In this document: positions 21,423-34,679 of the stretch, piece after piece | Position numbering within the stretch: the first letter of the stretch is position 1 | Layout of the letters: every line of letters starts with the position of its first letter | NCBI GenBank assembly: GCA_005881235.1 | Contig: VBEQ01000147.1 | Location: forward strand, 1 to 34,679 | DNA from: Chloroflexota bacterium | Lineage (GTDB): Bacteria; Chloroflexota; Dormibacteria; CF-121 | Direction of reading: 5' to 3' | DNA length: 34,679 nucleotides | Translations under genes and position numbers: made by a program | Notes under the pieces: generated by a model | Seen by the model: only the letters and a program-made list of their open reading frames with translations | The model's database searches: none | Told to the model about the DNA's origin: nothing

Positions 21423-21539
21423 CGGCTCCTCCACGCAACACGACGCAAACTACGACTTCAGTGGAGAGCAGAGCCGGTGCTGCGCGTCAGGCCGCGAAGT
21501 CGGAAACGAGGCCCATGGACGGCGTTTGCAGGACGGAAC

Positions 21540-21604
21540 TTATACACAAGCTTCCCACAACAGTGGAGAAGTCTATCGAGGTCTCCCCAGCCTCATGTGT
21601 ATAA
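21540..21604. promoter_or_regulatory. DnaA-box cluster upstream of dnaA (second oriC subregion / autoregulation)
   Basis: Consensus TTATACACA at 21540-48 and inverted TGTGTATAA at 21596-604, with degenerate CTTCCCACA 21551-59 and AGTGGAGAA 21562-70 between. Confidence 0.85.
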
Positions 21605-21645
21605 GTTGTTGATGGCTATTTGCCGTAGCTCTCCAGGGCAGCGGA

Positions 21646-21674
21646 ATAATAGCAAACGGTTACCACCCGTGCAA
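21646..21674 (-). promoter_or_regulatory. dnaA sigma70 promoter
   Basis: Minus strand TTGCAC, 17 bp, TATTAT, with TG extended -10 (TGcTATTAT). Confidence 0.7.
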
Positions 21675-21753
21675 TCCGAAATTACGTACGAAGCGCACCG
21701 CCGCGCATGGTCGCGCATGGTATGGTTAGGCCCCGAAAAACGTTGAGGTCTGC

Positions 21754-21909
21754 ATGAAGCGTACCCACCAGCCAAAGAAGCGCCAGCGGGTCAAGGTCCA
21801 CGGTTTCCGTGCCCGCATGTCGACGACGGGCGGCGTCAAGGTGATCAAGGCACGCCGTTTGAAGGGACGCCGCCGTCTGACACCGACGTCCAGCCGGCGC
21901 TACCGGTAA
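21754..21909 (+). CDS. rpmH: 50S ribosomal protein L34
   Basis: Not in ORF track; read manually: [51 protein letters not shown]; GAGG SD; extended -10 TGgTATGGT at 21718-26. Confidence 0.97.
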
Positions 21910-21928
21910 GCGCCTGCCTCCACCGCCG

Positions 21929-22261
21929 ATGAAACGGCGGTCTCGGCTACTCCGGTCGGCCGACTTCGACCGGACGCTGCGCTCGGGCCGCCGGGCCGCC
22001 TCCGAATACTTCGCCCTATTCGTAAGCGATAATGGGCTTGGCCGGCCTCGGGTCGGCCTGGCCGTCAGTCGGAAACTCGGGAATGCCGTGGTCCGAAATC
22101 GAGTCAAGCGGCGCCTGCGCGAACTGGTGAGGCCGTTGTTGACGCGGGCAGAGGGCGGCCGTGACGTTGTAATCGTGGCACGGGCTCGTGCCGTCGACGC
22201 GGAATTTACGCACTTGCGCCAGGAGATGGAAATGCTGTGGGCGAAGGGGTGGGGGTCGTGA
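21929..22261 (+). CDS. rnpA: Ribonuclease P protein component
   Basis: [25 protein letters not shown] (RNR motif); follows rpmH. Confidence 0.96.
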
Positions 22262-22473
22262 CGGCGGCGTCGCTGGCGCTGATCCGCGTCTACCGGATCA
22301 CGCTCGGTCCCCTCTTTGGCGTGCTGTCGAGCTGCCGCTACACACCCACCTGCTCGCAGTACGGGTATGAAGCCATCCAGCGCTACGGCTGGTGGCGTGG
22401 CTGGGGCATGGCCGTCCGCCGGGTCGCGCGCTGCCACCCCTTCCATGCCGGCGGCTGGGATCCCGTGCCATGA
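22258..22473 (+). CDS. yidD: Membrane protein insertion efficiency factor YidD
   Basis: [15 protein letters not shown]...[17 protein letters not shown]; GTGA overlap with rnpA stop. Confidence 0.95.
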
Positions 22474-23303
22474 CGTCGCTGCTCGCCCTGCTGGCGACCC
22501 GCCACGAGCCCTGGGACACCCTCGGCGACCTCTGGCACCCGATCTGGGCACTCTGGTGGACACTGATCGGAGTCCCGATCCATGCCGTCCTCAAGACAAT
22601 CCTGGGTGTCCTGAGCGGGAACCCGCTCGCCGAATCGATCGGGCCCTTTGGCATCGCCATCGTCCTCTTGACCATCCTGATCAAGCTGATCATCTCTCCC
22701 ATCTTCCAGTACCAGCTGACCACTTCGCGGCGCGTCCAGGCGGAGCAGCGCCGGATCGCTCCCCAGTTGTCCGCGCTACGAAAGAAGTACAAGAAGGATC
22801 CTCAGCTCCTCAACCAGGAAACCATGAAGCTCTACAAGGAGCACAACATCAACCCACTCGCGCAAATGAGCGGTTGCCTGCCGGCGTTGGTCCAGTCCCC
22901 CATCCTGATCGCGCTCTTCTATGTGATCCGGGACGCTCACAACACGCTACCGATCCACGATTTCCGCTTCCTGGGCATCTCACTGGACCATACGGCCCTG
23001 CAACCGGGGCAGTTCGTCCCGCTCGCCATCCTTCTGCCCATCCTCGCCGGGCTCACCACCTTCGTGCAGACCAAGATGATGACCCAGCCGGGTCAAGTTC
23101 AAGACCCGACCCAGGCGGCGATGACGCAGAACATGACGCTGATCATGCCCGTCTTCATCGGGTTCATCTCACTCAACTTCGCGGCCGCCCTCGCGCTCTA
23201 CTGGGTGGTCAGCAACCTCTTCAGCATCGGCCAGCAATACTTCATCACCGGCTGGGGTTCACTCAACATACCGCCGGGCTTACGCAGGGGGAAAGCCGCA
23301 TGA
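22470..23303 (+). CDS. yidC: Membrane protein insertase YidC (short form, no large periplasmic domain)
   Basis: [45 protein letters not shown]; ATGA overlap with yidD. Confidence 0.94.
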
Positions 23304-24091
23304 GCAGCAGCAGCAACAGCGTCGAAATCACCGGAAAGACTGTCGACGAGGCCGTCGAGCAGGCTCTCGAAGACCTCGAAGAGGCACGCGAGAACGTGGA
23401 CATCGAGGTGCTGGAGGAGTCCTCGGGGCAGGCTCGGGTTCGGGTTACGCAGCGGGAAACGTACGCCGTCAAGGCGCGCCAGGTCGTGGCCGAGCTTCTC
23501 TACAAGATGGGAATCACGGCGCAGGTATTCATCAAAAAAGCTGACGACCCGGTGATGATCGACGTTGCCGGCGATAACCTCGGGTTGCTGATCGGCTGGC
23601 GGGGGGAGACGCTTCGCGCCTTCCAGACAGTTGTCAACCTGATCCTCAACGAGGGCCGCGTCGACCGGCGCCGGCTGGTCGTCGACGTCGAGCACTACCG
23701 CAATCGCCGCGAGGAGACCGTCAAGGAGATGGCCCTGCGCCTCGCCGATCGTGTGCGGCGCACCGGCGAGCGGGTGATGATGGATCCGATGCAGTCGTAC
23801 GAGCGGCGCATCGTCCACATCACGCTCGAGAAGGAGCCCGGCATCCGCACCGAGAGCCAGGGTGAGGAACCGAACCGGCGGGTCGCGATCCTCCCCGACG
23901 GTGTCACCGCGGCTCGGCGCCCAGCGGAGCGTCCGGTGCCGGCCCCCTCCCCGCCACTGACTCGCCAGGGTTCGGGCTACGGTGATCGGCCCCGTTACGG
24001 CGATCGGCCGCGCTTCGGCGACCGACCGCGCTTCGGCGAGCGCCGCCCCGGTTACCGCGAGGGCGAGGGCGGGGGAGGCGAGACCCCCTGA
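23300..24091 (+). CDS. jag: Jag/EloR/KhpB RNA-binding protein (Jag_N, KH, R3H)
   Basis: GKTVDEAVEQAL, GLLIGWRGETLRAFQ, PMQSYERRIVH, SQGEEPNRRV; ATGA overlap with yidC. Confidence 0.94.
   Translation: MSSSSNSVEITGKTVDEAVEQALEDLEEARENVDIEVLEESSGQARVRVTQRETYAVKARQVVAELLYKMGITAQVFIKKADDPVMIDVAGDNLGLLIGWRGETLRAFQTVVNLILNEGRVDRRRLVVDVEHYRNRREETVKEMALRLADRVRRTGERVMMDPMQSYERRIVHITLEKEPGIRTESQGEEPNRRVAILPDGVTAARRPAERPVPAPSPPLTRQGSGYGDRPRYGDRPRFGDRPRFGERRPGYREGEGGGGETP
23978..24049 (+). repeat. 18-nt coding tandem repeat x4 encoding [YF]GDRPR in the Jag tail
   Basis: tacggtgatcggccccgt / tacggcgatcggccgcgc / ttcggcgaccgaccgcgc / ttcggcgagcgccgcccc; differences mostly synonymous. Confidence 0.85.
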
Positions 24092-24354
24092 ACGCCGGCG
24101 CTGTCGAGGTCGGCGCGGACCCGATAGAGCGCTGCCGCGACCGCCTCGGCCGATAAACCATCGTCGAGCGCGTCCCGAGCCTGCCGGACGCCCTCTTTGA
24201 GCTTCGGGGAGGCTGCCGCCGCGGCGAGCGCCTTCAGCTCACGGGCCACCTCCACGGGCAAGCGCGCACCCGCATCTGAGTCCGCATAATTCCAGGCCTC
24301 GACGCGTGCGATGAGGCGATTCAGACGGCGGCCGAATTCCAAACGCCCCGTCAC
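24052..24354 (-). CDS. Hypothetical helical protein (100 aa)
   Basis: Fills the jag-M16 gap, has plausible amphipathic helices, and TAATAT lies 6 nt upstream of its GTG; overlaps the jag 3' end by 40 nt. Confidence 0.65.
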   Translation of the reverse strand: MTGRLEFGRRLNRLIARVEAWNYADSDAGARLPVEVARELKALAAAAASPKLKEGVRQARDALDDGLSAEAVAAALYRVRADLDSAGVQGVSPPPPSPSR

Positions 24355-24450
24355 GGTTCAATATTATCCGACACTGGATGACCCATCATGTCTACCAAAA
24401 CGGTATCGAAATGTGAGGATGTGCCGACACCCCTACGATATACTCAGCTC

Positions 24451-25731
24451 GTGCCCCAAGCCCGTCCTCCTTATCGTCTGTCCACTTTGCCGACCGGGGC
24501 CAGAGTCGTCTCGACCGAGCTAGCCGACCGGCCCTCGGTCACCATGGCGATCATGTTCAAGGTCGGTTCCCGGTATGAGTCTGACAAAGAAGCCGGCATC
24601 AGCCACTTTCTCGAACACATGTTCTTCAAAGGCTCCGCCCGCTATGCCGGCGCCAAGGAGATCGCGGAGGCGATCGAGGGGGTGGGCGGCGTCCTGAACG
24701 CCGCGACGGACAAGGAGCTGACCATGTACTGGGCGCGCGTGCCCAAGACCAAGTCGAAGCTGGCCATCGACGTTCTCGGGGACATGCTGTTCCAGCCGTT
24801 GCTCGATCCTGCCGAGCTGGAGAAGGAGCGGCTGGTCGTGCTCGAGGAGCTGCGCATGTACCAGGACTCGCCGCAGGAGTACGTGCACAGCCTGTTCGAG
24901 CAGATCAGCTGGCCGGATCACCCGCTTGGTCGCGACGTGGGAGGGACCGAGGCCTCGGTTCGGGCCCTGTCGCGCGACGACCTGCTCCGCTACCTCGAAG
25001 AGCACTACCTGCTGCGCAATCTGGTCGTGACCATTGCGGGCCCAGTGACACACGACGAGGCGATCGCCCTCGTCCAGCCTTATCTCAAGGTTCGCGGCAA
25101 CGGCGCCCCGCCACCGTCGTTCTTGCCCTCGGTCGGCAACGGGCTCAAGCCCAACGTCCTGTTGAAGTCGAAGAAGACGGAGCAGGCGCACGTGTGCGTC
25201 GGCGTGCACGCACCCTCGTACATGGATCGCGACCGTCACGTGATCGACATCCTCAACTGCGTTCTCGGCGAGGGCATGAGCTCCCGTCTCTTCCTCGAAG
25301 TCCGCGAGAAGCTGGGGCTGGCGTACGACGTCCACTCCTACGTCAACAAGATGTTCGATACGGGGGTGCTCGGCATCTACGCCGGAACCGAGCCGCGCCA
25401 GGCCGCGCGAGCGGTGGGCGCCATCGTCGGCCAGCTGCGGCGGCTCTGCCAGGAACCGGTGCAGAGCGCGGAGTTGACGAAGGCTAAAGAGTTTTACAAG
25501 GGCCGTTTGTTGCTGCAGATGGAGAGCACCAACTCCGTGGCGACCTGGTACGGCGGGCAGGAAGCCCTCACCGGCCGAATTGAGGGGGTCGATGAGAACA
25601 TGGCGGAGATCGATGCGGTCACCGCAGACGACGTTATGCGGATCGCCAACGAGCTCTTCAGCCAGGCGCTGCAGCTCGCGGTGATCGGCCCGTTTCGCAG
25701 CGAGGCGCCCTTCCTCAAGCAGATAGCTTGA
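24451..25731 (+). CDS. M16 (pitrilysin/MPP-like) zinc peptidase
   Basis: GSRYE..EAGISHFLEHMFFKGS (HxxEH), LNAAT, GMSSRLF.EVREKLGLAY; GTG 24451 lies 6 nt after TATACT. Confidence 0.93.
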   Translation: MPQARPPYRLSTLPTGARVVSTELADRPSVTMAIMFKVGSRYESDKEAGISHFLEHMFFKGSARYAGAKEIAEAIEGVGGVLNAATDKELTMYWARVPKTKSKLAIDVLGDMLFQPLLDPAELEKERLVVLEELRMYQDSPQEYVHSLFEQISWPDHPLGRDVGGTEASVRALSRDDLLRYLEEHYLLRNLVVTIAGPVTHDEAIALVQPYLKVRGNGAPPPSFLPSVGNGLKPNVLLKSKKTEQAHVCVGVHAPSYMDRDRHVIDILNCVLGEGMSSRLFLEVREKLGLAYDVHSYVNKMFDTGVLGIYAGTEPRQAARAVGAIVGQLRRLCQEPVQSAELTKAKEFYKGRLLLQMESTNSVATWYGGQEALTGRIEGVDENMAEIDAVTADDVMRIANELFSQALQLAVIGPFRSEAPFLKQIA

Positions 25732-25775
25732 GAGATAGAATGAATCGCCCTCGGATGAAGTTAAACAGCTAAAGG

Positions 25776-26375
25776 ATGGCGCAGCCGCACATGGCGCAAC
25801 CGCCGGCGCCCCAGCAACCAGCGCGCCAGAAGTCTTTTCTCAGGGACACGCTCGAGATCGTGTTCCTTGCGCTCGTTCTGTACGTGGTGATCCAGTACGC
25901 CGTGCAGACCGTCCACGTGCTGGGCTCGAGCATGTACGCGACGCTGCACGACAATGACCTCCTCGTGGCGTCGAAGATTTCCTACAAGCTCCACCAACCG
26001 CAACGAGGCGACATCATCGTGTTCAAGCCGCCCGACGAAGCCAGCCGCGACTTCATCAAGCGCATCATCGCCCTGCCGGGCGAGCGGGTGCACATCGCCA
26101 ACAGCGTGGTCTACATCAATGGGCGGGTGCTGCACGAGCCCTACCTCCCGGAGCCGTGGATCGTTAACAGCAACTGGCCCGCCTCGGGTCAGGACCAGCT
26201 CATCCCGCCGAATCAGTACTTCGTGCTGGGCGACAACCGCAACCATTCGAGCGACTCGCGCAGCTTCGGTCCCGTCGACTTGGACGCGATCCTTGGCAAG
26301 GCGGAAATCCGCATCTGGCCGCTGGGCCAGGTCGGCTTTCTCGGTGCCAAGCCGACTCTCGCCGCGGGACGATAG
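25776..26375 (+). CDS. lepB: Signal peptidase I
   Basis: GSSMYATL (catalytic Ser), FIKRIIALPG (Lys), FVLGDNRNHSSDSR; single N-terminal TM. Alternative ATG at 25791. Confidence 0.95.
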   Translation: MAQPHMAQPPAPQQPARQKSFLRDTLEIVFLALVLYVVIQYAVQTVHVLGSSMYATLHDNDLLVASKISYKLHQPQRGDIIVFKPPDEASRDFIKRIIALPGERVHIANSVVYINGRVLHEPYLPEPWIVNSNWPASGQDQLIPPNQYFVLGDNRNHSSDSRSFGPVDLDAILGKAEIRIWPLGQVGFLGAKPTLAAGR

Positions 26376-26378
26376 TCG

Positions 26379-26828
26379 GTGCAGCGCACGCTGGTCCTGG
26401 TCAAGCCCGATGGCGTCCAGCGAGGACTAGTCGGGGCGATCATCGCGCGGCTGGAGGGTCGAGGCCTGAAGCTCATCGGCCTCAAGATGATGCGGATCAC
26501 CAAAGACGTGGCGAGCCGCCATTACGTGGAGCACCAGGGTAAGCCGTTCTACGACGGCTTGATTGCGTTCATCACCTCGGGGCCGGTGGTGGCGATGATC
26601 TGGGAAGGGCGCGAGGCGGTCAGTGTCGTCCGCAGCCTGGTGGGCGCGACGGATCCGCTGAAAGCTGCGCCCGGGACGATTCGCGGCGACCTCGCCCTCG
26701 ACCTCGGCATGAACTTGATCCACGGATCGGACTCGCCCAGCCGCGCCCAAGCCGAAATCACCCTCTTCTTCGAGTCCAACGAGCTGCACGAGTACGAGCG
26801 CACCGCGGACCGCTGGATCCGCGAGTAG
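26379..26828 (+). CDS. ndk: Nucleoside diphosphate kinase
   Basis: RTLVLVKPDGVQRGL, SGPVVAM, PGTIRGD, NLIHGSDS. Confidence 0.97.
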   Translation: MQRTLVLVKPDGVQRGLVGAIIARLEGRGLKLIGLKMMRITKDVASRHYVEHQGKPFYDGLIAFITSGPVVAMIWEGREAVSVVRSLVGATDPLKAAPGTIRGDLALDLGMNLIHGSDSPSRAQAEITLFFESNELHEYERTADRWIRE

Positions 26829-26843
26829 GTTCCACGTGCAACC
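26828..26843. promoter_or_regulatory. parS-like centromere site
   Basis: GGTTCCACGTGCAACC, a near-perfect 16-bp palindrome matching tGTTtCACGTGaAACa, filling the gap between the convergent ndk and parB stops. Confidence 0.82.
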
Positions 26844-26844
26844 G

Positions 26845-27729
26845 CTACCGGGTCAAGCGGCGCCGGAGCGCCTCGAGCTCCTCGTTGCTGTAGAACTCGA
26901 TCGTCAAGCGCCCGCCCTGCTTGAGTTTGGTCAGGACGACCTTGGTCCCCAGGGCCCGACGAAATTCTTCCTCGACCGCGCGAGTTTCGGGATCGGTCGC
27001 GGCCAACCGTCGGCGTGGCTGCCGGGTCCCCGCCTCGGTCGCGCGGGCGCGAGCCCACTCCTCCGTCTGCCGCACACTCCACCGCTCCTTGATCACCCGC
27101 TCGAGGCCGACAAGTTGCTGGGCCACCGTCGCCAGGCCGAGAAGGGCACTCCCGTGTCCGGCCGTGATCGCGCCGCTTTCGATCGCCTTGATGGCGGTCT
27201 CCGGTAACCCGAGCAAGCGCACACTCTGGGCGATCGTCACCCGGTTCTTGCCGATCCGCTCGGCCAGGGCTTCCTGGGTCAGACCGAAGTCGCGCAACAG
27301 GCGCTGAATGGCGCGCGCCTCTTCGATGGCGTTGAGGTCGGTCCGCTGCAGGTTCTCGACCAGCGCCAGCTCCAAGCGTTCCTCGAGGCGTCCGCCACTG
27401 CCGGGGTGCACGATGACCGGCACCTCCTCGAGGCCGGCGATCTCCGCGGCCCGGAGCCGCCGTTCGCCCGCGATCAGCTCATAGCCGGCAAGTCCCTCGC
27501 GAACCAGCAGCGGCTGCAGGATGCCGTGGATTCGGATCGAGTCGGCGAGTTCCTGCAGGGACGCCGGATCGAACGAGCGGCGCGGCTGCTCAGGGTTCGG
27601 CTTGATCTCGGCGATCGCGATTTGCAGGGCGAAGCGGCGCCGGGCACGGTTGTCGCTCAGCTCCTCGACGTACTCCCCCGAAGGGATCAAGGCCTCGAGG
27701 CCCCGACCCAAACCACGTCGTTTGTTCAT
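26845..27729 (-). CDS. parB: Chromosome partitioning protein ParB/Spo0J
   Basis: GLGRGLEALI, PNPEQPRRSF, GILQPL, IAGERRLRAA, ENLQRTDLN, HTH region. Confidence 0.97.
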   Translation of the reverse strand: MNKRRGLGRGLEALIPSGEYVEELSDNRARRRFALQIAIAEIKPNPEQPRRSFDPASLQELADSIRIHGILQPLLVREGLAGYELIAGERRLRAAEIAGLEEVPVIVHPGSGGRLEERLELALVENLQRTDLNAIEEARAIQRLLRDFGLTQEALAERIGKNRVTIAQSVRLLGLPETAIKAIESGAITAGHGSALLGLATVAQQLVGLERVIKERWSVRQTEEWARARATEAGTRQPRRRLAATDPETRAVEEEFRRALGTKVVLTKLKQGGRLTIEFYSNEELEALRRRLTR

Positions 27730-28484
27730 CTGGCGATCAACTCCTTGGTGAGTTCCTGGTAGGCGACGGCGCCGCGTGAGGTCGGGTCATATTGCGTGAT
27801 CGGCATCCCATAACTGGGCGCCTCGCTGAGGCGCACGTTGCGCGGGATGACGGTCTGAAACGTCTTCTCCGGATAGCGTGCGCGGACCTGCTCCGCCACC
27901 TGGAGCGCCAGCGTCAAGCGAGGATCGAAAAGCGTCAGCACGATGCCGCCGATCTTCAGCCGCGGGTTGAGCTCGCGTTGGATGAGCTGCGTCGTGTGGG
28001 TCAGCGCGCCCAGGCCTTCGAGCGCGTAATACTCGCACTGGATCGGAATCAGCATGTACTCGGCGGCCACCAGGGAGTTGATGGTGAGCAGGCCGAGCGA
28101 GGGCGGGCAGTCGATGATGATGTAGTCGTAGGCGACGCGCAGCGCGTCGAGCGCGTAGAGCAGGCGCCGTTCGCGCCGGGGTAGGTTGATCAGCTCGATC
28201 TCGGCGCCGGCCAGCGAGACATGTGATGGGAGGATGTCGAGGCCCGGCACCGCGGTCGGACGGATCACTTGATTGATGTCATCGGCATCGACGATGACGT
28301 TATAGACACTACTGTTGAGCTCGCTACGGATGATGCCCAGCCCGCTGGTGGTGTTGCCTTGAGGGTCCATGTCGACGATCAACACGCTGAGGCCGAGCTG
28401 CGGCAGGTTGGCGGCCACGTTGATAGCGGTCGTGGTCTTGCCGACTCCGCCCTTTTGATTGACGACTGCGTAGACTCTTGGCAA
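27726..28484 (-). CDS. parA: Chromosome partitioning ATPase ParA/Soj
   Basis: NQKGGVGKTTT, DMDPQGN, IDCPPSLG, QCEYYALEG, IPRNVRLSEAPS; TTG 28484 preferred because TATAAT (28524-19) lies inside the longer ORF. Confidence 0.96.
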   Translation of the reverse strand: MPRVYAVVNQKGGVGKTTTAINVAANLPQLGLSVLIVDMDPQGNTTSGLGIIRSELNSSVYNVIVDADDINQVIRPTAVPGLDILPSHVSLAGAEIELINLPRRERRLLYALDALRVAYDYIIIDCPPSLGLLTINSLVAAEYMLIPIQCEYYALEGLGALTHTTQLIQRELNPRLKIGGIVLTLFDPRLTLALQVAEQVRARYPEKTFQTVIPRNVRLSEAPSYGMPITQYDPTSRGAVAYQELTKELIAR

Positions 28485-28518
28485 TTTGCTGGCTGGAACG
28501 CGGGACGGTGCTGCCCGG

Positions 28519-28575
28519 ATTATACGGTCGCCGGGATCAAACGCACGTTTGCACAAGTGGAATGCCTGTGCATAA
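28519..28575 (-). promoter_or_regulatory. parAB promoter region with DnaA boxes
   Basis: Minus-strand TATAAT at 28524-19; consensus box TTATGCACA (minus, 28575-67) and GTTTGCACA (plus, 28547-55). Confidence 0.62.
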
Positions 28576-29562
28576 CTACCTGAGCAGGTAGGGGATCACG
28601 CCGACGGCGATGTTGTAGCCGGCGTGTGTCACCATGCATGGCAGGGTGCTGCCGGAGCGAACGCGCAATAACCCGAGTCCGATGCCGAGCACGAAGACCT
28701 CGAGGGTCGCGAAGGTGACGGCGTACTGGGTGTGGAGTGCGGCGAAGAGGACGGCCGTGACCAGCACGCCGAGGCGCGGTACCAGGGCGCCACGAAACAG
28801 GGTCTCTTCCACGACCGCCGGCATCAAGCCGAGCAAGATGACGCCAAGTGGGTTGTTGAAGTGGCTGAACAACACGTTCGTCGCATTGGTGACCTGCTGC
28901 TGGCTCGACGGGCTCAGTATGTCCGCGACCCGCTCGATGCCGTAGGCGACCGCCAGGAACGCGAAGATGCCTAGCACCGCCACCAGCCACCATCGGTTTT
29001 GACGTGGCGGCACCAGGCCGAGCCGTTCGATGGCCTCGCGCGGCGATCGTCGCACGAAGATCCCGACTCCGACAAAGGAGAGGAGGAGCAACGGGATGTC
29101 CTGCGCCAGGAGATCGGCCAGCGTCAGGGGTGTGCCGGGCTGCACCTGCGCACCGGCTTGCTGCGCGATCAGCAGCAGGCCGAGCACGATCGTGAGGTAG
29201 ATAACCGGCGACCCAGGGCGTATCGGGATCACGCGCGCCAGCGCACGCTGGACCGGAGGCCACAAGTACAGCAGGCCGAGGACGCCAGCAATCGTCAGCG
29301 GGACGGCGAGAAATTCGGCCGCCCGGAATCTGTCGAGGCTCTCCGCTCCGGTGCGATACAGCACCAGGTGGCCGCCGGCGACCAGGAGGCCGAACAGCAG
29401 CGCGAGCCCGCAGAGTGCGCCACCGGCGATGAGGGATACGATGCGCGCGGTCGCGTTGCGCTCGCCGAAGTTGGCGAGCACATAGAGGGCGGCGAGGATA
29501 CCAAGGAGGACAACCGTCCAGAAATCGACCGCGGCGTCGCCGTGAACGAGAAGGCGGATCAG
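28576..29562 (-). CDS. CPBP/Abi (CAAX type II) intramembrane metalloprotease
   Basis: [20 protein letters not shown]. The frame stays open and hydrophobic upstream of GTG 29481 to a CTG at 29562 that overlaps the SPFH stop; start uncertain. Confidence 0.88.
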
Positions 29563-30356
29563 GCTTTTGCCGGTGTCGCCGATCCGCCGCCCTTGCCCTG
29601 GCGGATATCGATGAGCTGCTGGACGAGGTCGATCGGCACCGGAAAGACGATCACGGTGTTCCGTTCGACCCCGATCTCCGTGAGGGTCTGCAGGTAGCGC
29701 AATTGCAGCGCGCTAGGCTGCGTCGCGATCACGCCGGCGGCATCGGTCAGCTTCTGCGCCGCCTCGAACTCACCCTCCGCATGGATGATCTTGGCTCGCT
29801 TCTCTCGCTCGGCCTCTGCCTGCTTGGCCATCGCTCGCTGCATCGTTTGGGGGAGCTCGACATCCTTGATCTCGACGGTCGAGACCTTGATTCCCCAGGG
29901 TTCCGTCTGCTCGTCGATGATTTTTTGCAGGCGGGTGTTGATCTTCTCCCGGTTGGCGAGGAGCTCGTCCAGCGATGACTGCCCGAGCACGCTCCGTAGC
30001 GTGGTTTGCGCTATTTGTGAAGTGGCGTTGATGAAGTTGGCAACCTTGGTGACGGCGTTGCGGGGATCGACCACCAGGAAGTAGATGACGGCGTTGACCT
30101 TGATGGTCACGTTGTCGAGCGTAATGACCTCCTGTGGCGGGACCTCGAGGGTCACCGTCCGCAGATCGATCTTCACCAGGCGGTCGATGCCGAAGGGAAT
30201 GATCAGCCTCAGTCCCGGACCCTTCAGGGCCATCAAGCGGCCCAGCCGGAAGAGGACGCCGCGTTCGTATTCGTTGATGATCCGGATCGCCGAGCTCAGG
30301 CCGATGAGGACGACGAGAACGATGAAGCCGAGGACGATGAGAGCGAAAACGCCCAT
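29559..30356 (-). CDS. SPFH/band-7 stomatin-like (slipin) protein
   Basis: [64 protein letters not shown]; AGGGAGG SD. Confidence 0.96.
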
Positions 30357-30410
30357 GAGTCCCTCCCTTCGTTAACGCACCGCTGCCGTCGAGTTCATGT
30401 TACGGGTCAC

Positions 30411-30505
30411 ATCATCAGCGCGCGTGATCATCAGCGCGCTCCGGCGTGGAAAAGCGCGCCTGATCATCAGCGCCCTCCGGCGTGGAAAAGCGCGCGTGTT
30501 CATGA
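30411..30505. repeat. 36-bp tandem repeat (2 full + 2 partial copies) with internal hairpin
   Basis: tgatcatcagcgcgctccggcgtggaaaagcgcgcc (30425-60) and tgatcatcagcgccctccggcgtggaaaagcgcgcg (30461-96), 34/36 identical; partial copies at 30411-24 and 30497-505. Confidence 0.9.
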
Positions 30506-31891
30506 GGATGCCGCCTGCGGCCCTTGCGACCGCCCCGCCTCCGTTTGTTGCACGGCTTCGACTCGCAGACGAAGGCCGTCCACGCCGACCACGCGTACTG
30601 GCGCGCCGGCATCGAGCGGGCCACTGGTTGAGGTGGCTTGCCAGAGCGCGCCGTTGACGAACACCATCCCGCTGGGGTTCAACGGTTCTCGCACCGAACC
30701 GAGGCTGCCGATCATCGACTCCTCGCCCGCCGCGTACGGACGCCGCCGGGCATCGAGCAGCTTGCGCAGGATGAAGAGGAAGACGGCGGCGATGACGAGC
30801 ACCGTGATTACGAGCAGTGGGATGTTGACGCCCTCGGCCAGGAAGCTGGTATTGATCAACAGCAGGCCGCCGAGCGTCATCGCGACGATGCCGCCGGTGG
30901 TCAGCACCCCGTGGGTCACCGCTTTGAGGTCGACAATGAACAGCACCACCGCGATCAGGATGAGGATGATCCCGGCGATGTTGACCGGGAGATCGAACAT
31001 CGACACCGCGGCGAGCACGCCGGCGATGACGCCGATCACCCCGGGCAGGAACATGCCGGGGTGCGTGACCCAGAAGCCGATGCCAATCAGCGCCAGCAGG
31101 AACAGAAGGTACACGAGGTTCGGGTCGGCGACTGCCTGGAGAAACTGATCGAAGCCACTCATGTCGTAGTGCTGGATGCCGGCGTTCGCGGTTTGCAGGG
31201 TGTATGTCTGGCCGCCCTTTGAGACATGGCGGGCGTCGAGGTCCTGGAGCAACGTGTCCAGGTCCCTGCTTTCGAAATCGACCACGCCCAATTTCACGGC
31301 GTCATCCACGGGCGCATTGATGCTCTGCCGGACGGCCTTCTCGGCCCAGTCCGCGTTGCGGTGGTGCAGCGCGGCCAGGGCCCGAATGTAGGCGGCCGCG
31401 TCGTTTTCGATCTTCTGCGATTCGATATCCGGTGCCGTCGACGTGGCGCCGCTCGCGCTCGGGCTTGCCGCCGGGGTGGCGGCCGGGTTGGAGCCGCCAA
31501 GGCTGACGGGATGGGCCGAGCCGATGTTCGTCCCCGGGGCCATCACGGCGATATCGGCCGCCTCCGTGATGTAGAGGCCGGCCGAGGCGGCCCGGGCGCC
31601 TGAGGGCGACACGAAGATCACGACGGGCAGCGGCGCGCCCAGGATCTTCTTGATGATGTGGCGCATCGAGGTGTCGAGCCCACCCGGGGTATCCATCGCG
31701 ATGATCAGCGCGTTGGCCTGCCCAGAGACGGCCTTGTCGACCGCGGTGGAGACGTAGTTGTCAGTGATCGGATTGATGACCCCGTTGAGGGTCGCGACCA
31801 GGACGTGCGGCTCGGCGGCGCGGGCTTGAACCGCGGGCAGCAAAACGGCCAGCATGGTGGCCGCGAGAAAGAGCCGGGCGGCCCTCGTCAC
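30500..31891 (-). CDS. nfeD: NfeD long form (ClpP-class serine protease + membrane domain + OB fold)
   Basis: Signal peptide, MDTPGG, RAASAG, MAPGTNIGSAHPV, RNADWA, GMVFVNGALWQA; adjacent to SPFH gene; GTG 31891 lies 6 nt after TATGAT. Confidence 0.92.
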   Translation of the reverse strand: MTRAARLFLAATMLAVLLPAVQARAAEPHVLVATLNGVINPITDNYVSTAVDKAVSGQANALIIAMDTPGGLDTSMRHIIKKILGAPLPVVIFVSPSGARAASAGLYITEAADIAVMAPGTNIGSAHPVSLGGSNPAATPAASPSASGATSTAPDIESQKIENDAAAYIRALAALHHRNADWAEKAVRQSINAPVDDAVKLGVVDFESRDLDTLLQDLDARHVSKGGQTYTLQTANAGIQHYDMSGFDQFLQAVADPNLVYLLFLLALIGIGFWVTHPGMFLPGVIGVIAGVLAAVSMFDLPVNIAGIILILIAVVLFIVDLKAVTHGVLTTGGIVAMTLGGLLLINTSFLAEGVNIPLLVITVLVIAAVFLFILRKLLDARRRPYAAGEESMIGSLGSVREPLNPSGMVFVNGALWQATSTSGPLDAGAPVRVVGVDGLRLRVEAVQQTEAGRSQGPQAASS

Positions 31892-31941
31892 GACTTGATC
31901 ATAGCCCCGGTTTACGGCCTTGTCGTTCGTAGAATGGGAAC

Positions 31942-32544
31942 ATGGCCCAACGCGTGGAACAGCAGCCGCCGAAAGACGAGGAGGAGGAGATCCGGGCGCA
32001 AGTCGCGCGCTATCCACGACTGTCCAACGCGCAGGAACAGCGGCTCCTTGCCACCCAGGGGGTGGAGCGCGATGCGGCGAACCGGACGCTGATCGAGCAT
32101 AACCTCCACCTGGTGGTGGAGGCCGCGCAGGCGCGCAAGAAGCACGGCGTCCCCTTTGGCGACCTCTTCCAGGAAGGGACGGTCGGGTTGATCTCGGCCA
32201 TCGAGCACTACCAGCCCGGAGACGGCGGCTTCCATGCCCGGTTGGTACACGCGATCGACGTCACCATGGATGACGTGCTCGCCCAGACGCAAGAAGCCCA
32301 GCGCAACGACGAAGCCTTCGTCGTCGCCTGCCGCCTGCTGGAATCGGCGCAGCGGCTGCTGTCGGAGCGGCTGGACCGCGAGGCGACGCCCGCCGAGCTG
32401 GCCAAGCTTCTGCAGTGGGAGGAGGCGCGCGTCAATATCATTCTGGAGATGCTGCGAGGGGCCGAGGTGGTCCACGACCAGGAGCTGCTCGACTACCTCG
32501 ACCTCCTCGACGACGCGGACGATCCTGACGACCCCGAGGCGTAA
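31942..32544 (+). CDS. Truncated sigma70-like protein (regions 1.2-2-3 only; degenerate 2.3/2.4; no region 4)
   Basis: YPRLSNAQEQRL (1.2), LIEHNLHLVV (2.1), GVPFGDLFQEGTVGLISAIEHY (2.2), LSERLDREATPAELAKLL (3); ends in an acidic tail. ATG lies 6 nt after TAGAAT. Confidence 0.8.
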   Translation: MAQRVEQQPPKDEEEEIRAQVARYPRLSNAQEQRLLATQGVERDAANRTLIEHNLHLVVEAAQARKKHGVPFGDLFQEGTVGLISAIEHYQPGDGGFHARLVHAIDVTMDDVLAQTQEAQRNDEAFVVACRLLESAQRLLSERLDREATPAELAKLLQWEEARVNIILEMLRGAEVVHDQELLDYLDLLDDADDPDDPEA

Positions 32545-32547
32545 CGT

Positions 32548-33639
32548 TTGGTCGTGACGGCCGCGCGGACACCGCTGTACGAGGAGCATGTCCGTCTCGG
32601 CGCCCAGATGACGAACTTCGGAGGCTGGGTGATGCCGCTTCAGTACAGCACGATCCGCGAAGAGCACCACGCCGTGCGCGAGGCTGTGGGCCTCTTCGAT
32701 CTTTCGCATATGGGTGAGCTGCGCATCGGGGACGAAACCCTCGTCCAGCGTGTCCTCAGTCGCGACGTGACGCGACTGCGCCCGGGACGGATCCAGTACG
32801 CGGTGCTCTGCAACGACGCGGGCGGCATCATCGATGACGTGCTCGTTTATGCGATGCCGGACCGCGGCTACCTGCTGGTGGTCAATGCCGGCAACCAGGA
32901 CGGCGACTTCGACTGGATCCGAAAACACGCCCAGGCCGCGGACGCGGCCCGCAATGTCGGCCGGGAGTGGGCGCTGATCGGCGTGCAGGGCCCGCGAGCG
33001 GTGGATCTCGTTCAGCGGCTGACGCCGTCTGACCTCGCCAGTGTCAAGTACTATGCCTTCGTCGACGGGACCGTTGCGGATGTGTCGTGCGTGATCTCGC
33101 GGACCGGCTATACGGGTGAGGATGGCTTCGAGCTTTTTTGTGGCAACGCCGACGCCGTGCGGCTGTGGCGCGCGCTGCTGGAGGAGGGGCGGTCCGATGG
33201 CATCCGGCCGGCCGGCCTGGGCGCCCGCGACACCCTTCGCCTCGAAGCGGGCATGCGCCTCTACGGCAATGACATGGACGCGCAGACGAATCCCCTTGAG
33301 GCAGGGCTCGATTGGACGCTCAACCTCGAGAAGGATTTCATCGGCCGCGACGCCATCATGACGTCTCGCCAGCGGGGCCTCGCGCGGCAGCTGGTTGGCT
33401 TCAAGATGCTGGACCGCAGCATTCCACGCCACGGCTACCGCATCGTCAGTGATGGCGAGGGCGTCGGGACGGTGACGTCGGGAAACGTCTCCTTCACGCT
33501 TGGCTACAACATCGGGATGGCCTACGTGCCGCCTGCCATGTCCGAGCCGGGAACCCGTCTCGGCGTGGACATTCGTGGCGCCGCCGCGCCGGCCGAGGTC
33601 GTCCCGCTGCCTTTTTACAAGCGGCCTCATCCGAAGTGA
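32548..33639 (+). CDS. gcvT: Glycine cleavage system aminomethyltransferase T
   Basis: RTPLYEEH, FGGWVMPLQY, GLFDLSHMG, SRTGYTGEDGFE, GLGARDTLRLEAG, PLPFYK. Start TTG 32548 or GTG 32554. Confidence 0.97.
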   Translation: MVVTAARTPLYEEHVRLGAQMTNFGGWVMPLQYSTIREEHHAVREAVGLFDLSHMGELRIGDETLVQRVLSRDVTRLRPGRIQYAVLCNDAGGIIDDVLVYAMPDRGYLLVVNAGNQDGDFDWIRKHAQAADAARNVGREWALIGVQGPRAVDLVQRLTPSDLASVKYYAFVDGTVADVSCVISRTGYTGEDGFELFCGNADAVRLWRALLEEGRSDGIRPAGLGARDTLRLEAGMRLYGNDMDAQTNPLEAGLDWTLNLEKDFIGRDAIMTSRQRGLARQLVGFKMLDRSIPRHGYRIVSDGEGVGTVTSGNVSFTLGYNIGMAYVPPAMSEPGTRLGVDIRGAAAPAEVVPLPFYKRPHPK

Positions 33640-33655
33640 AGGAAAGGGAGTTAGG

Positions 33656-34042
33656 ATGCCAGACCTGACCGGCATGCGTTTCGCGGAGACCCACGAGTGG
33701 GTCAAGCAGGACGGAGAGACGGCGACGGTGGGGATCAGCGAGTATGCCCAGTCGCAGCTCGGTGACGTGATCTACCTCGAACTGCCGGCGGTTGGTCAGC
33801 AGCTCGACGCTGGCGCGCGGCTGGGGGTCATCGAATCGGTGAAGGCGGCTTCCGACCTGTACAGTCCCGTTGGTGGCGAGGTGACAGAGGCCAACGCGGA
33901 GCTCAAAGATCATCCCGAGTACGTCAACCAGGATCCCTACGGCAAGGGCTGGATCATCAAGCTCCGCGCCGTGAAGGACAATCCCAAGCTCCTCGACCAG
34001 AAAGCCTACGACGCGTTCGTCGAGGGCCAGTCGCACTCGTGA
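33656..34042 (+). CDS. gcvH: Glycine cleavage system H protein
   Basis: HEWV, GISEYAQSQLGDV, IESVKAAS (lipoyl Lys), VNQDPYGKGW; ATG 33656 with AGGGAG SD. Confidence 0.97.
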   Translation: MPDLTGMRFAETHEWVKQDGETATVGISEYAQSQLGDVIYLELPAVGQQLDAGARLGVIESVKAASDLYSPVGGEVTEANAELKDHPEYVNQDPYGKGWIIKLRAVKDNPKLLDQKAYDAFVEGQSHS

Positions 34043-34049
34043 TCTCCTG

Positions 34050-34679
34050 GTGACCTACCTCCCCAACGCCGACGCCGAGCGCGCCGAGATGCTCAAAGCG
34101 CTCGAGCTGGAGAGCATCGACGGCCTGTTCACGCACCTCCCCGAGGCACTCAAATTGGATCGCGTCGACCTCCCCGAGCCGCTCTCCGAGGTGGAATTGG
34201 TGCAGTACGTTCGCGAGCTCGGCCGCCTGAACGCGAGGATTTCGCCGGCGAACAGCTTTCTGGGTGCTGGCGCCTCGCGACGCTTCAGTCCGGCGATCGT
34301 CAATCAGGTCATTTCGCGACCGGACTTCTATACGACCTACACGCCCTACCAGGCGGAGGCCAGCCAGGGCACGCTGCAGGCGACCTACGAGTTTCAGAGC
34401 ATGATCACCCTTCTCACCGGACTGGATGTGGCGAACGCCTCCCTGTACGACGGCGCGACGGCGCTGGCGGAAGCAACGGCGATGGCGGTCGCCCACACGA
34501 ACCGCCAGAACGTGGTTGTGGCCGGCGCGCTTCATCCCGAGTACGCGCAGGTGCTCAAGACCTACTCCGAGGCCCAGCAGTACGAGATCCTGCGGGTCGC
34601 GCCCGGGGCCGATGGCCGGGTCGACCTCGCGAAGCTGGAGCAGGCCGTCACCAGCACCACCGCCGCGCTCATCCTGCAG
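34050..34679 (+). CDS. gcvPA: Glycine dehydrogenase subunit 1 (partial, runs off window)
   Basis: Read manually: MTYLPNADAERAEML...FLGAG...YTTYTPYQAEASQGTLQATYEFQSMI..LTGLDVANASLYDGATALAEA. Confidence 0.94.
   Translation, partial: MTYLPNADAERAEMLKALELESIDGLFTHLPEALKLDRVDLPEPLSEVELVQYVRELGRLNARISPANSFLGAGASRRFSPAIVNQVISRPDFYTTYTPYQAEASQGTLQATYEFQSMITLLTGLDVANASLYDGATALAEATAMAVAHTNRQNVVVAGALHPEYAQVLKTYSEAQQYEILRVAPGADGRVDLAKLEQAVTSTTAALILQ

Follow-up and report, generated by a model that had tools for sequence, protein, structure and literature searches.

The window, by which is meant the whole 34,679-nucleotide stretch of Chloroflexota DNA that was analyzed, carries near its 3' end an open reading frame for a 200-residue sigma-like protein, followed on the same strand by genes for the glycine cleavage system (Table 1). 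The product is an intact sigma70 paralogue; the open reading frame, its translation, and the alignments described below bore out the sequence strings and the clean stop codon quoted in the original prediction. The GC content at the three codon positions (0.80/0.35/0.86) is consistent with a genuine coding frame. The scan placed no terminator-like site on the plus strand between this open reading frame and gcvT. An RNA leader or riboswitch 5' of the operon was considered and rejected, since an Rfam search of positions 29000-34679 (E <= 1) returned no glycine riboswitch; the only match in this interval was a sub-threshold fluoride match inside gcvP. The divergent NfeD-type gene is a neighbor, and no functional link to the sigma-like gene is implied by its position.

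A leaderless-type promoter had been predicted for the sigma-like gene, and the conservation of the -10-like box agrees with it. The string gtcgttcgTAGAATgNgaac[A/G]TG is kept in 12/12 same-genus loci, and a TAnnAT box is found 5-10 nt 5' of the chosen start codon in 7 of 12 distant loci. The generic promoter scan called no plus-strand promoter for the sigma-like open reading frame and returned only the minus-strand site of the NfeD-type gene; the TAGAAT box was missed because it has no -35 match.

Table 1. Positions of the genes, promoter-like sites, and protein segments at the locus (numbered from the first nucleotide of the window)
Feature	Positions	Strand	Remarks
NfeD-type membrane protease gene	30503..31891	-	Divergent, SPFH gene behind; Pfam NfeD_membrane, NfeD, NfeD1b_N
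Promoter-like site of the NfeD-type gene	31926->31898	-	Promoter scan
TAGAAT, -10-like box	31930..31935	+	6 nt 5' of start codon, leaderless-type; read by eye and from conservation
Sigma-like protein ORF	31942..32544	+	200 aa, ATG to TAA, complete; GC3 0.86
Region 1.2 (weak) and region 2.1-like helices	31999..32139	+	aa 20-66; alignment to own SigA copies, profile alignment to Thermus SigA
Region 2.2	32140..32217	+	aa 67-92; contains DLFQEG (aa 74-79, nt 32161-32178), beta' clamp-helix binding motif
Replaced region 2.3/2.4, acidic, no Trp	32218..32313	+	aa 93-124; charge and Trp counts, dN/dS
Region 3.0/3.1-like, with family-specific W159	32314..32457	+	aa 125-172; Pfam Sigma70_r3 at aa 133-172
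Conserved C-terminal motif A-R-x-x-H-D-E-E-L-L-x-Y-L-D	32458..32502	+	aa 173-187; region 3.2 homologue after 7-residue deletion (alignment)
Variable acidic tail	32503..32541	+	aa 188-200; dN/dS 0.32; sequence and length vary by lineage; pLDDT <50 at 194-200
gcvT, aminomethyltransferase	32548..33639	+	Begins 4 nt past the stop codon; Pfam GCV_T 313.8 bits, and GCV_T_C
gcvH	33656..34042	+	Pfam GCV_H 141.4 bits
gcvP, N-terminal subunit	34050..34679	+	Extends past the window end; Pfam GDC-P 177.7 bits

Relationship to the primary sigma factors

Two domains of the protein were recognized by Pfam. The Sigma70_r2 match scored 30.7 bits (cut-off 24) and aligned residues 50-99 with positions 1-51 of the 71-position profile, and it thus ends ahead of regions 2.3 and 2.4. 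The Sigma70_r3 match scored 29.2 bits (cut-off 25.3) and aligned residues 133-172 with positions 6-45 of 78. The Pfam scan of the 200 residues gave no match to the r4, r4_2, or r1_2 models and none to a receiver or other signal-input domain, and the domain and family scans returned no module resembling a ligand-binding or enzyme-binding type. Region 1.2 is recognizable only in profile alignments, which extend back to residues ~10-20.

The homology to primary sigma factors is clear. Alignment using MAFFT with the three primary-like sigmas encoded by the same genome was found to be collinear from region 1.2 to region 3.2. The predicted collinearity with regions 1.2, 2.1, 2.2, and 3 is in this way upheld by MAFFT and by the Pfam r2 and r3 matches, with region 1.2 as its weak part. 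The family profile matches Thermus SigA at 1.2e-24, with group 1 sigmas at the top of the best 60 matches listed, and a Foldseek search with the monomer model gave sigma factors only, among the matches listed. Membership in groups 1 and 2 was assessed using the NCBIfam models PRK05949, TIGR02997, and RpoS; the best scores (56.9, 54.5, and 54.2 bits) lie far below the respective cut-offs of 530, 384.5, and 378.7 bits.

The two halves of region 2 differ in what they retain. The core-binding segment 2.1/2.2 is kept, and the DLFQEG of the sigma-like protein aligns with the DLIQEG of the organism's own primary-like sigmas. In region 2.3 of a functional sigma70, a cluster of aromatic residues (Y/W-W) melts the -10 element. 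This cluster is lost here: the FSTYATWWIRQAI of the organism's own SigA copies is replaced by FHARLVHAIDVTM. The basic surface of regions 2.4 and 3.0 that reads the -10 and extended -10 elements is likewise missing, with TQEAQRND opposite ARTIRIPV (QEAQRNDEA in place of ARTIRIPVH). The aligned 2.3/2.4 segment has a net charge between -6 and 0 in 24/24 members of the protein family, versus +5 or +6 for the SigA copies of the organism itself; none of the 24 contains a Trp in this segment. The median pI of the family is 4.58 (n = 89).

Toward the C-terminus, a 7-residue deletion is followed by HDQELLDYLDLLDD, which aligns with EEDSHLGDFVEDKD of the organism's own sigmas. The chain ends there, at the point where a linker leading to region 4 is expected, and it carries neither region 4 nor any other C-terminal domain that reads the -35 element. 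The absence of region 4, as predicted, was found to be family-wide (24/24 aligned members and, in the species collection, all 48 family loci, where at most 46 residues follow the match). The acidic tail had been proposed as a mimic of the sigma finger. The conserved part of the C-terminus is the region 3.2 homologue itself, shortened by 7 residues, but the extreme end is its least constrained part and is variable in length. The genome contains 27 Sigma70_r2 matches, and the sigma-like protein is the only one of them with no in-frame region-4 match.

Conservation and distribution of the family

Orthologues of ~200 residues were identified in 21/24 genomes of the same genus and in 32/33 other genomes of the same class, with a single match in each. 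Elsewhere in the phylum, 267 genomes gave no family-type match. Five GTDB families share an intact frame of ~190-220 residues, with identities of 28-41%, and the protein family comprises 94 clusters at 50% identity (E <= 1e-30). A search of the Atlas returned clusters labelled 'hypothetical protein' only. One member of the class (G025, 98% complete) carries neither the protein nor a remnant of it, yet it has gcvT, preceded by a divergent amidase-like gene. In one genus member (G003, also L044), the C-terminal part of the protein lies in another frame. No full-length sigma factor was found among the close or distant members of the family. In a quick tree, as distinct from a careful maximum-likelihood inference, the family forms a separate long branch and is confined to one side of a single branch (SH-aLRT 100), with the canonical sigmas on the other side.

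The sigma-like gene is maintained and not decaying. The dN/dS of the whole gene was determined to be 0.132, versus 0.134 for gcvT. This value and the lack of any full-length family member agree with the earlier view that the gene is not a recent pseudogene. Within the genus, the values for region 2.2, the 2.3/2.4 segment, and the tail (residues 188-200) are 0.076, 0.064, and 0.32, respectively. The beta'-binding motif (L75, Q77, E78, and G79) and the family-specific C-terminal residues W159, A174-R175, D179, and Y185-L186-D187 are the most conserved. Among 89 diverse members, L75, Q77, E78, and G79 are kept in 85, 86, 84, and 76, respectively, and the alignment of 24 members shows no exception at Q77, E78, or G79. 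In the region 3-like part, R146, L157, and W159 are kept in 83/89, 87/89, and 88/89. The C-terminal motif is conserved at A174 (87/88), R175 (76/88), D179 (87/89), Y/F185 (85/89), and D/E187 (85/89).

The comparison of regions 2.2 and 2.3 that was called for earlier came out as anticipated, with region 2.2 the better conserved and the -10 residues replaced, with reversed charge, in 24/24 members. The description of the protein as melting-dead holds for the residues responsible for reading and melting the -10 element; it does not hold for the segment as a whole. The replaced 2.3/2.4 segment differs among families but is under strong constraint inside the genus, and it must therefore have some role and is not simply dead.

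The position of the gene at the head of the gcv operon depends on the lineage. In GTDB families f1, f3, and f4, gcvT is directly 3' of the gene in 22/22 genomes checked, and in the species collection the same holds for 42/47 family loci that could be assessed. In family f2, gcvT adjoins the gene in 0/8 genomes that carry the protein, and G025 has gcvT alone; the predicted operon arrangement is thus right for three families and fails in f2. Since the protein persists in f2 without the gcv linkage, a general role fits better than a gcv-specific one. Across lineages, the neighbors are either NfeD and gcvT or an SRPBCC gene and DinB, and the divergent NfeD-type neighbor recurs in the 12 genus loci and in locus L015.

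In four runs of one soil metatranscriptome study, small shares of the stretch were present. The contigs (200-254 nt, 0-1 differences) tile positions 31970-32467 and document presence in RNA libraries only; none fell on gcvT or the flanks, a lack that carries no weight either way.

Modelled contact with RNA polymerase and candidate roles

The interface between sigma2 and the beta' clamp helices is a textbook one with solved structures. Modelled as a complex with a beta' clamp-helix fragment, the family scored 0.72, against 0.00 for the best of three controls. For calibration, 58 of 80 solved complexes attain the 0.72 mark, as do 2 of 110 mismatched pairs, counts that are rough because our own alignments were used. 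The check proposed earlier was thereby passed, controls included; because the interface is a textbook one, the pass may reflect memory of solved structures, and it speaks for likeness and not for binding. Contact agreement between runs was at least 41%, and the partner pLDDT was at least 77. In the model, residues 33-68 of the beta' fragment face residues 73-88 of the protein, with Q77 central, and residues 48 and 51-52 are also within the interface. The beta' contact is in this sense supported by the model.

The AF2 monomer (pLDDT 87, pTM 0.68) has continuous helices at residues 97-144 and 161-192, and its superposition on sigma in holoenzymes gave an rmsd of ~10 A and a TM score of ~0.46. 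The long helices and the poor superposition suggest that sigma2 and sigma3 may not dock canonically on core together. As a structural control for the family specificity of the continuous 97-144 helix, the matching SigA segment (1.2-3.2) of the same organism was folded from a 3-row alignment; its mean pLDDT was 52.9, too poor a model to serve for that comparison.

We tentatively favor, at a little below an even chance, the reading that the sigma-like protein occupies the sigma site of core RNA polymerase without initiating transcription. The protein is an old, class-specific offshoot of a primary-type sigma70 that retains the sigma2 scaffold, the beta' clamp-helix motif, and the sigma3 domain. 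It has lost region 4, part of the 3.2 finger, and, in regions 2.3, 2.4, and 3.0, the aromatic and basic residues with which a sigma reads and melts the -10 element. It may dock on core at the sigma2 site, and probably also at the sigma3 site, and would then display an acidic face where a true sigma has its DNA-binding face. The sigma site would be filled without promoter recognition or opening. The outcome could be competition with true sigmas, core kept off DNA, or both, as a throttle, a storage cap, or a recycling aid. This competition or capping outcome and its physiological role are what we infer from the features above, and the core-binding, sequestration, competition, and decoy roles of the original prediction were inferences of the same kind. 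A more specific version, which we regard as possible and rather doubtful, is a dedicated cap, carried by nearly all Dormibacteria-type bacteria sampled, that binds the sigma2 and sigma3 sites, presents a DNA-repelling acidic face, and either parks the enzyme in an inactive and readily recoverable state or sets how much core is left to true sigmas, at a level tied to the gcv operon in most lineages. The near-invariance of W159 and of AR..HDEELLxYLD, together with the constrained 2.3/2.4 segment, points to a partner or a function outside the sigma-site model. The model also leaves the conserved gcvT coupling in three families unaccounted for, and the lack of the protein in G025 is a further point against it.

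Anti-sigma factors commonly cover the core-binding surface of sigma2. Conservation of DLxQEG is for this reason equally compatible with a decoy that does not act on RNA polymerase and instead, in the fashion of PhyR and NepR, titrates a regulator (an anti-sigma or other sigma-binding factor) of the primary sigma2/sigma3 surface. Constraint on the 2.3/2.4 segment within the genus and its divergence among families would suit co-evolution with a lineage-specific partner, and PhyR provides a precedent for the concept in the portion of PMC8103513 that treats it. The core-contact regions of PhyR are described there as degenerate, however, and here they are the best-conserved part. The decoy is further disfavored by the lack of a candidate partner gene beside the sigma-like gene in any lineage, by the rejection of RbpA as a partner (not found in the genome, which is 79% complete), and by the missing receiver or other signal-input domain in the Pfam scan; we consider it unlikely. 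Still less probable is an unusual working initiator, a minimal sigma for -10-only or extended -10 promoters that acts alone or with a separate DNA-binding partner of the SigO-RsoA or T4 gp55/gp33 type. It could draw on the retained sigma2 and sigma3 scaffolds, the modelled beta' contact, the purifying selection on the 2.3/2.4 segment, and the existence of split and minimal sigmas, as covered in part of PMC8103513. The 2.3/2.4 segment is not conserved family-wide, though, as a promoter-reading surface would be expected to be, and its lack of Trp in 24/24 members and neutral-to-acidic charge suit DNA binding poorly. No region-4 match was found on contig C41, and the small region-4-like open reading frames on contig C212, considered as a region-4-only partner, read as LuxR/GerE-type HTH proteins. 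No DNA-binding or other candidate partner gene lies beside the sigma-like gene in either neighborhood type; the neighbors here (NfeD/SPFH and gcvTHP) include no separate sigma4-bearing partner, which for a split sigma of the SigO-RsoA type normally shares the operon, although a partner elsewhere may have been missed in a genome that is 79% complete.

A role outside initiation that is tied to glycine and one-carbon metabolism, as a regulator of the glycine cleavage complex or as an elongation-stage factor on the gcv transcript, would account for the placement of gcvT directly 3' in every checked genome of three families and in most loci of the species collection. The 4-nt spacing here and the abutting genes in several distant loci suggest co-translation. 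The unlinked f2 genomes and G025 indicate that the gcv linkage may be inherited synteny, and no ligand-binding or enzyme-binding-like module is present in the sequence; we hold this role to be improbable, about on a par with the unusual initiator. The degenerate-looking 2.3/2.4 segment, the missing region 4, and the frame-shifted C-terminal part in G003 (also L044) could be taken for a functionless, decaying remnant of a primary sigma gene. Both selection and distribution already contradict that reading: the dN/dS equals that of gcvT, and the frame is kept intact in five GTDB families, with 94 clusters at 50% identity. The conserved promoter-like box and the near-identical fragments in soil RNA libraries (presence only) also stand against it, and we give it almost no weight.

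Comparison with known systems

Competition between sigma factors for core RNA polymerase is a central idea of bacterial gene regulation, and the competitors for core that are known to us are all working sigmas. The host soil lineage is thought to be largely dormant through life. The core-binding half of a primary sigma, stripped of its promoter functions, would amount to a natural 'dominant-negative sigma' and, if the occupancy of the sigma site is real, to a simple way for the cell to throttle or store polymerase. If the cap reading is true, it would define a new class of global transcription regulator made from a disabled primary sigma. Alongside PhyR, it would also provide a second and independent example of a sigma converted to regulation without initiation, in this instance from a primary-type sigma. 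The source organisms are uncultured, and since the beta' clamp helices are 97-98% identical across the class, the proposal is probably testable using recombinant protein and core from a laboratory bacterium. No description of such a protein (a truncated, degenerate, or region-4-less sigma, a pseudo-sigma, or one from Dormibacterota) was found in the open-access papers searched.

Relative to the group 1 and 2 sigma70 factors (SigA/RpoD and RpoS), the sigma-like protein shares homology from regions 1.2/2.1 through 3.1, the same folds, the DLxQEG motif, and a beta' contact that is modelled at the canonical position. It differs from them by the absence of regions 1.1 and 4, by the replacement of the -10 residues with reversal of charge, and by the 7-residue deletion in region 3.2. 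Phage T4 gp55 (with gp33) binds the beta' clamp helices. RsoA of the B. subtilis SigO-RsoA pair carries sigma2, according to the section of PMC8103513 on split sigmas. These are likewise small proteins that bear part of a sigma, but they join in promoter opening with a partner, whereas here the melting determinants are gone and a partner gene was not found.

The sigma-like domain of PhyR, from the alphaproteobacterial general stress response, is also a non-initiating module derived from a sigma and retained for protein-protein interaction, and PhyR was the sole established pseudo-sigma precedent to surface in the literature searched. PhyR descends from an ECF sigma (sigma2 and sigma4) and carries a fused receiver, and its core-contact regions are degenerate, as described in part of PMC8103513. 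The protein reported here is derived from a primary-type sigma, stands alone with r2 and r3 matches only, and has the core-contact motif as its best-conserved part. HelD and delta of Bacillus are proposed to keep RNA polymerase off nucleic acids, delta by means of an acidic region, and a storage ('hibernation') role has been suggested in the passages of PMC7749165 that deal with them. HelD is described there as entering the main and secondary channels and leaving most sigma sites free (PMC7749165). In contrast, the sigma-like protein, which is unrelated to HelD and delta in sequence and fold, would fill the sigma site itself.

Domain Anatomy and Selection

The sigma-like gene has a codon-position GC of 0.80/0.35/0.86, in line with the neighboring genes, and all of the strings quoted from it in the original prediction are present exactly in the translated frame. 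The GC3 of the long antisense frame is 0.73 versus 0.83–0.86 for the sense genes, and thus this frame is probably an artefact of the high (66%) G+C content.

Coordinates of the sigma-like gene and associated features
Feature	Coordinates	Strand	Remarks
Sigma-like gene	window 31942..32544	+	open frame of 200 codons, ATG start, TAA stop
Antisense open frame	window 31915-33705	-	597 codons, across sigma-like gene and gcvT
NfeD-type protease gene	window 30503-31891	-	upstream, divergent; SPFH gene behind
Promoter-like site for NfeD gene	window 31926->31898	-	ACGACA-17-TATGAT; in the intergenic region (31898-31941), interleaved with the TAGAAT box
gcvT, then gcvH, gcvP			downstream; gcvT starts 4 nt past the sigma-like stop
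Origin-proximal set	window 20070-28556		dnaA 20070-21434 (-), rnpA, yidC, M16 peptidase, S26 signal peptidase, ndk, parB, parA
Primary-like (group 1 type) sigma genes	C176:9938-12186 (two in tandem); C139:6-1622 (one)	-	source genome; regions 1.2-4 intact; loci L025, L026
beta' gene	C18:3695 (start)		source genome; locus L029
Same-genus copy with shifted frame	G003:C120:107257-107843		also locus L044
Gene preceding the family ORF, f2 loci	L013:~2500-2960; L019:~2530-2986; L020, upstream of 2971		ends at the family ORF start codon

Pfam Sigma70_r2 matched the protein with 30.7 bits (cutoff 24) over profile positions 1–51 of 71 only, and Sigma70_r3 with 29.2 bits (cutoff 25.3) over positions 6–45 of 78; regions 4, 4_2, and 1.2 gave no Pfam match. 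The collinearity with sigma70 that had been proposed by eye was confirmed by Pfam and a MAFFT alignment, although region 1.2 is only weakly recognizable. In NCBIfam the protein most resembles primary-like sigmas (PRK05949, cyanobacterial RpoD, RpoS, and SigB; E 1e-15 to 1e-13), scoring far under the curated cutoff of each, and NCBIfam has no model specific to the family. The source genome (255 contigs, 79% complete) contains 27 Sigma70_r2 matches. The sigma-like protein is the weakest of these; no other match is cut short at profile position 51, and every other one shares its frame with a region-4 match.

The same genome encodes three primary-like sigmas and one SigB/F/G-like sigma (contig C159); the same pairs of primary-like matches are found in relatives from the same genus. 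With MAFFT, the sigma-like protein and its relatives are collinear with the three primary sigmas. DLFQEG is found in place of DLIQEG, FHARLVHAIDVTM in place of FSTYATWWIRQAI, TQEAQRND in place of ARTIRIPV, a 7-residue gap in place of PVSLETP, and HDQELLDYLDLLDD in place of EEDSHLGDFVEDKD, this last pair representing region 3.2, the "sigma finger". The chain ends where the linker to region 4 starts in the primary sigmas. In each of the organism's three SigA copies the segment aligned with regions 2.3/2.4 carries a net charge of +5 or +6; in 24 of 24 family members its net charge is -6 to 0, and none of them has a tryptophan there. The median pI of the family is 4.58, and proline occurs between positions 100 and 142 in 1 of 89 members.

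The dN/dS of the sigma-like gene was determined to be 0.132 (Nei–Gojobori, 66 pairs among 12 same-genus genes), and that of gcvT at 11 of the same 12 loci was 0.134. Within the same-genus genes the values for region 2.2, the replaced 2.3/2.4 segment, region 3.0/3.1, the C-terminal motif, and the tail were 0.076, 0.064, 0.079, 0.18, and 0.32, respectively. Simple decay of a sigma gene is excluded.

Residue conservation was determined with 89 diverse members (79 representatives and 10 loci); representatives outside 165–270 aa and 13 chimeric, truncated, or frameshifted representatives (P0125, P0182, P0184, P0192, P0197, P0199, P0200, P0201, P0205, P0211, P0213, P0215, and P0216) were left out. 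The best-kept positions are L75 (85/89), Q77 (86/89), E78 (84/89), G79 (76/89), and A86 in region 2.2; R146, E152, A154, L157 (87/89), and W159 (88/89) in region 3.1; and A174 (87/88), R at 175 (76/88), D179 (87/89), Y/F185, L186, and D/E187 in the C-terminal motif. Across the family, conservation does not extend to the replaced 2.3/2.4 segment. The extreme tail is dispensable. In the L008–L011 subclade an in-frame TAG shortens the tail by 6 codons, and the ancestral "...GAGGCGTAA" end can be read downstream.

Predicted Structure and Contact with beta'

The AlphaFold2 monomer model, built with the 24-member family alignment A1, is confident and all-helical (mean pLDDT 87, pTM 0.68), with an unbroken helix at 97–144 and another at 161–192. 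Foldseek, run against the PDB, listed sigma factors only (E 1e-7 to 1e-5). Whole-chain superposition on the PDB sigmas gave a TM-score of about 0.46 and an rmsd of about 10 Å, so the modeled domains match those of sigma but their arrangement in the monomer model differs. Folding the SigA segment of this organism as a control gave a model too poor for comparison (pLDDT 53).

In the beta' subunit of the source genome the clamp helices are preceded by a long insertion rich in Lys and Glu (roughly 250 residues, within about 130–390). A 150-residue beta' fragment with the clamp helices is 97–98% identical in five other members of the class. When this fragment was co-folded with the family alignment, the score was 0.72 (0.71, 0.78, and 0.72 in the individual runs), and the best of three controls gave 0.00. 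Of 80 solved complexes, 58 attain the co-folding mark, as do 2 of 110 mismatched pairs; with our own alignments these figures are approximate. At least 41% of the contacts agree in the runs, and the partner pLDDT is at least 77. The confidently predicted interface joins beta' fragment residues 33–68 to protein residues 13, 17, 20, 48, 51–52, 73–88, and 119–127, with Q77 at its center, and has the canonical sigma2–clamp-helix geometry. Since many sigma2–clamp-helix complexes have been solved, this result shows a preserved likeness to sigma2 and is no proof of binding.

Distribution and Genomic Context

Of 1547 candidates from a word-indexed protein search, 467 had E ≤ 0.001; those listed (120) have lengths of 188–200 aa and identities of 78–97%, and one is labeled "Candidatus Dormibacteraeota" at NCBI. 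Matches at E ≤ 1e-79 were found in 21 of the 24 other genomes of the genus. The three without a match are 66%, 84%, and 71% complete; one of them, G019, is unpublished and was used in this count only. The copy in G003 changes frame after about codon 155 (the last ~48 residues), owing either to a frameshift or to misassembly. Twelve distant copies (28–41% identity) come from GTDB families f2–f4 of the same class. With the start codons chosen by us, all 24 family proteins are 194–220 aa long, and region 4 is absent from every one.

A search of 1.84 billion representative proteins with the A1 profile yielded 94 clusters at E ≤ 1e-30, most of them 170–230 aa in length, with coverage to profile position ~190–197; ordinary sigmas appeared only from about 1e-26 and covered positions ~17–172 only. 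Of the 150 sequences listed, the first 100, minus about eight, were inspected. Among these, a WW motif together with region 4 in a long sequence was seen only in P0182, P0201, P0205, and P0211, four canonical sigmas in which segments are duplicated. In a phylum sample of 301 genomes (E ≤ 1e-25), 32 of the 33 other genomes of the class had one match each (f1 6/6, f2 12/13, f3 9/9, f4 4/4, and f5 1/1); the unpublished G199 and G296 were used in this count only. Two of the 267 genomes outside the class had a match, and both were rejected as ordinary sigmas because only profile positions ~10–171 are covered, inside open frames of ~500 codons.

A pattern scan of a 185,579-species collection yielded at least 600 stretches, and the best 80 split cleanly by family-HMM score into 48 family members (140–229 bits, coverage to position ~189–196, at most 46 residues past the match) and 32 canonical sigmas (51–114 bits, coverage ending by ~171, 79–206 residues past the match). 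The family loci are labeled Dormibacter-type or "Chloroflexi bacterium", with six exceptions from one MAG catalogue (L039, L046, L057, L063, L068, and L087; their labels are Binatus, Limnocylindrales, Verrucomicrobiia, Baltobacterales, Eisenbacteria, and Nitrosopolaris). One of the six is 89% identical to the sigma-like protein, and thus these labels look wrong.

In a quick IQ-TREE of 55 rows selected by us (25 family members, 4 of the organism's own sigmas, and 26 canonical sigmas from the species-collection scan), all of the family members lie to one side of a branch whose SH-aLRT is 100. A long internal branch parts the family from other sigmas, nor are its members nested with the SigA copies of this organism. 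The family has no name in any of the libraries; its Atlas clusters are labeled "hypothetical protein". Language-model neighbors at Atlas ranks 10 and 16 are Bacillota clusters of 171–173 aa, in one of which 70% of the members have Sigma70_r3 only; as a lead only, this may point to a further type of truncated sigma-like protein.

The dnaA, rnpA, yidC, parB, and parA genes cluster 4–12 kb upstream of the sigma-like gene, with dnaA at about 10 kb. A TAGAAT box ends 6 nt 5' of the start codon, inside a 20-nt string kept in 12 of 12 loci of the genus (ATG start in 3, GTG in 9), and a TAnnAT box is found 5–10 nt before the start chosen by us in 7 of 12 distant loci. The arrangement fits a leaderless or near-leaderless mRNA. 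The intergenic region shared with the NfeD gene is 50 nt long, and both genes could be leaderless.

The gcvT gene is directly downstream at 12 of 12 f1 loci, 5 of 5 f4 loci, in 5 of 5 f3 genomes, and at 42 of the 47 assessable family loci among the best 80 of the at least 600 stretches. In none of the eight f2 genomes with the protein does gcvT adjoin it, being 7 kb or more away or on a different contig; the linkage is lineage-dependent. In L019 and L020 the preceding f2 gene overlaps the start codon of the family ORF. In L019 that gene has an SRPBCC/Polyketide_cyc2 domain, and a DinB-type polymerase gene lies convergent and downstream of the family ORF in L013 and L019. The f2 genome G025 (1.5 Mb, 98% complete) has gcvT and lacks the sigma-like protein.

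Possible Function

Region 2.2 is the part of sigma70 that holds the core enzyme, as established by genetics and structures. In its anatomy, the sigma-like protein keeps the core-holding half of sigma function, and this half is the most conserved part of the family. The DNA-reading and melting half is lost, with region 4 removed and regions 2.3, 2.4, and 3.0 replaced by an acidic surface. The simplest mechanism, to which we give slightly less than an even chance, is that the protein would occupy the sigma site on core RNA polymerase and that, once there, it could not start transcription. This account is incomplete in that it does not cover the coupling to gcv, and the strong within-genus constraint on the replaced segment, the near-invariant W159, and the AR..HDEELLxYLD motif point to a putative further contact.

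In the open-access full texts searched, we found no natural sigma paralogue described as lacking region 4 and being unable to melt DNA. The protein, as a derivative of the sigma70 family, is conceptually close to sigma mimicry and is of real interest for transcription biologists; the case is so far computational only.

That the protein still works as a sigma of an unusual type, or forms half of a split sigma, is improbable; the 2.3/2.4 segment is acidic, tryptophan-free, and unconserved, and a partner gene was not found. Family f2 and G025 weaken the case for a gcv-specific role, which we hold to be quite unlikely as well. The main rival is that the protein serves as a decoy for a putative sigma-binding regulator, which we consider doubtful. 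For this reading PhyR is a precedent, but PhyR is described as an ECF-derived sigma-like domain fused to a receiver domain (PMC8103513). According to the same source, the core contacts of PhyR are degenerate (PMC8103513), whereas in the sigma-like protein the corresponding regions are the most conserved part.
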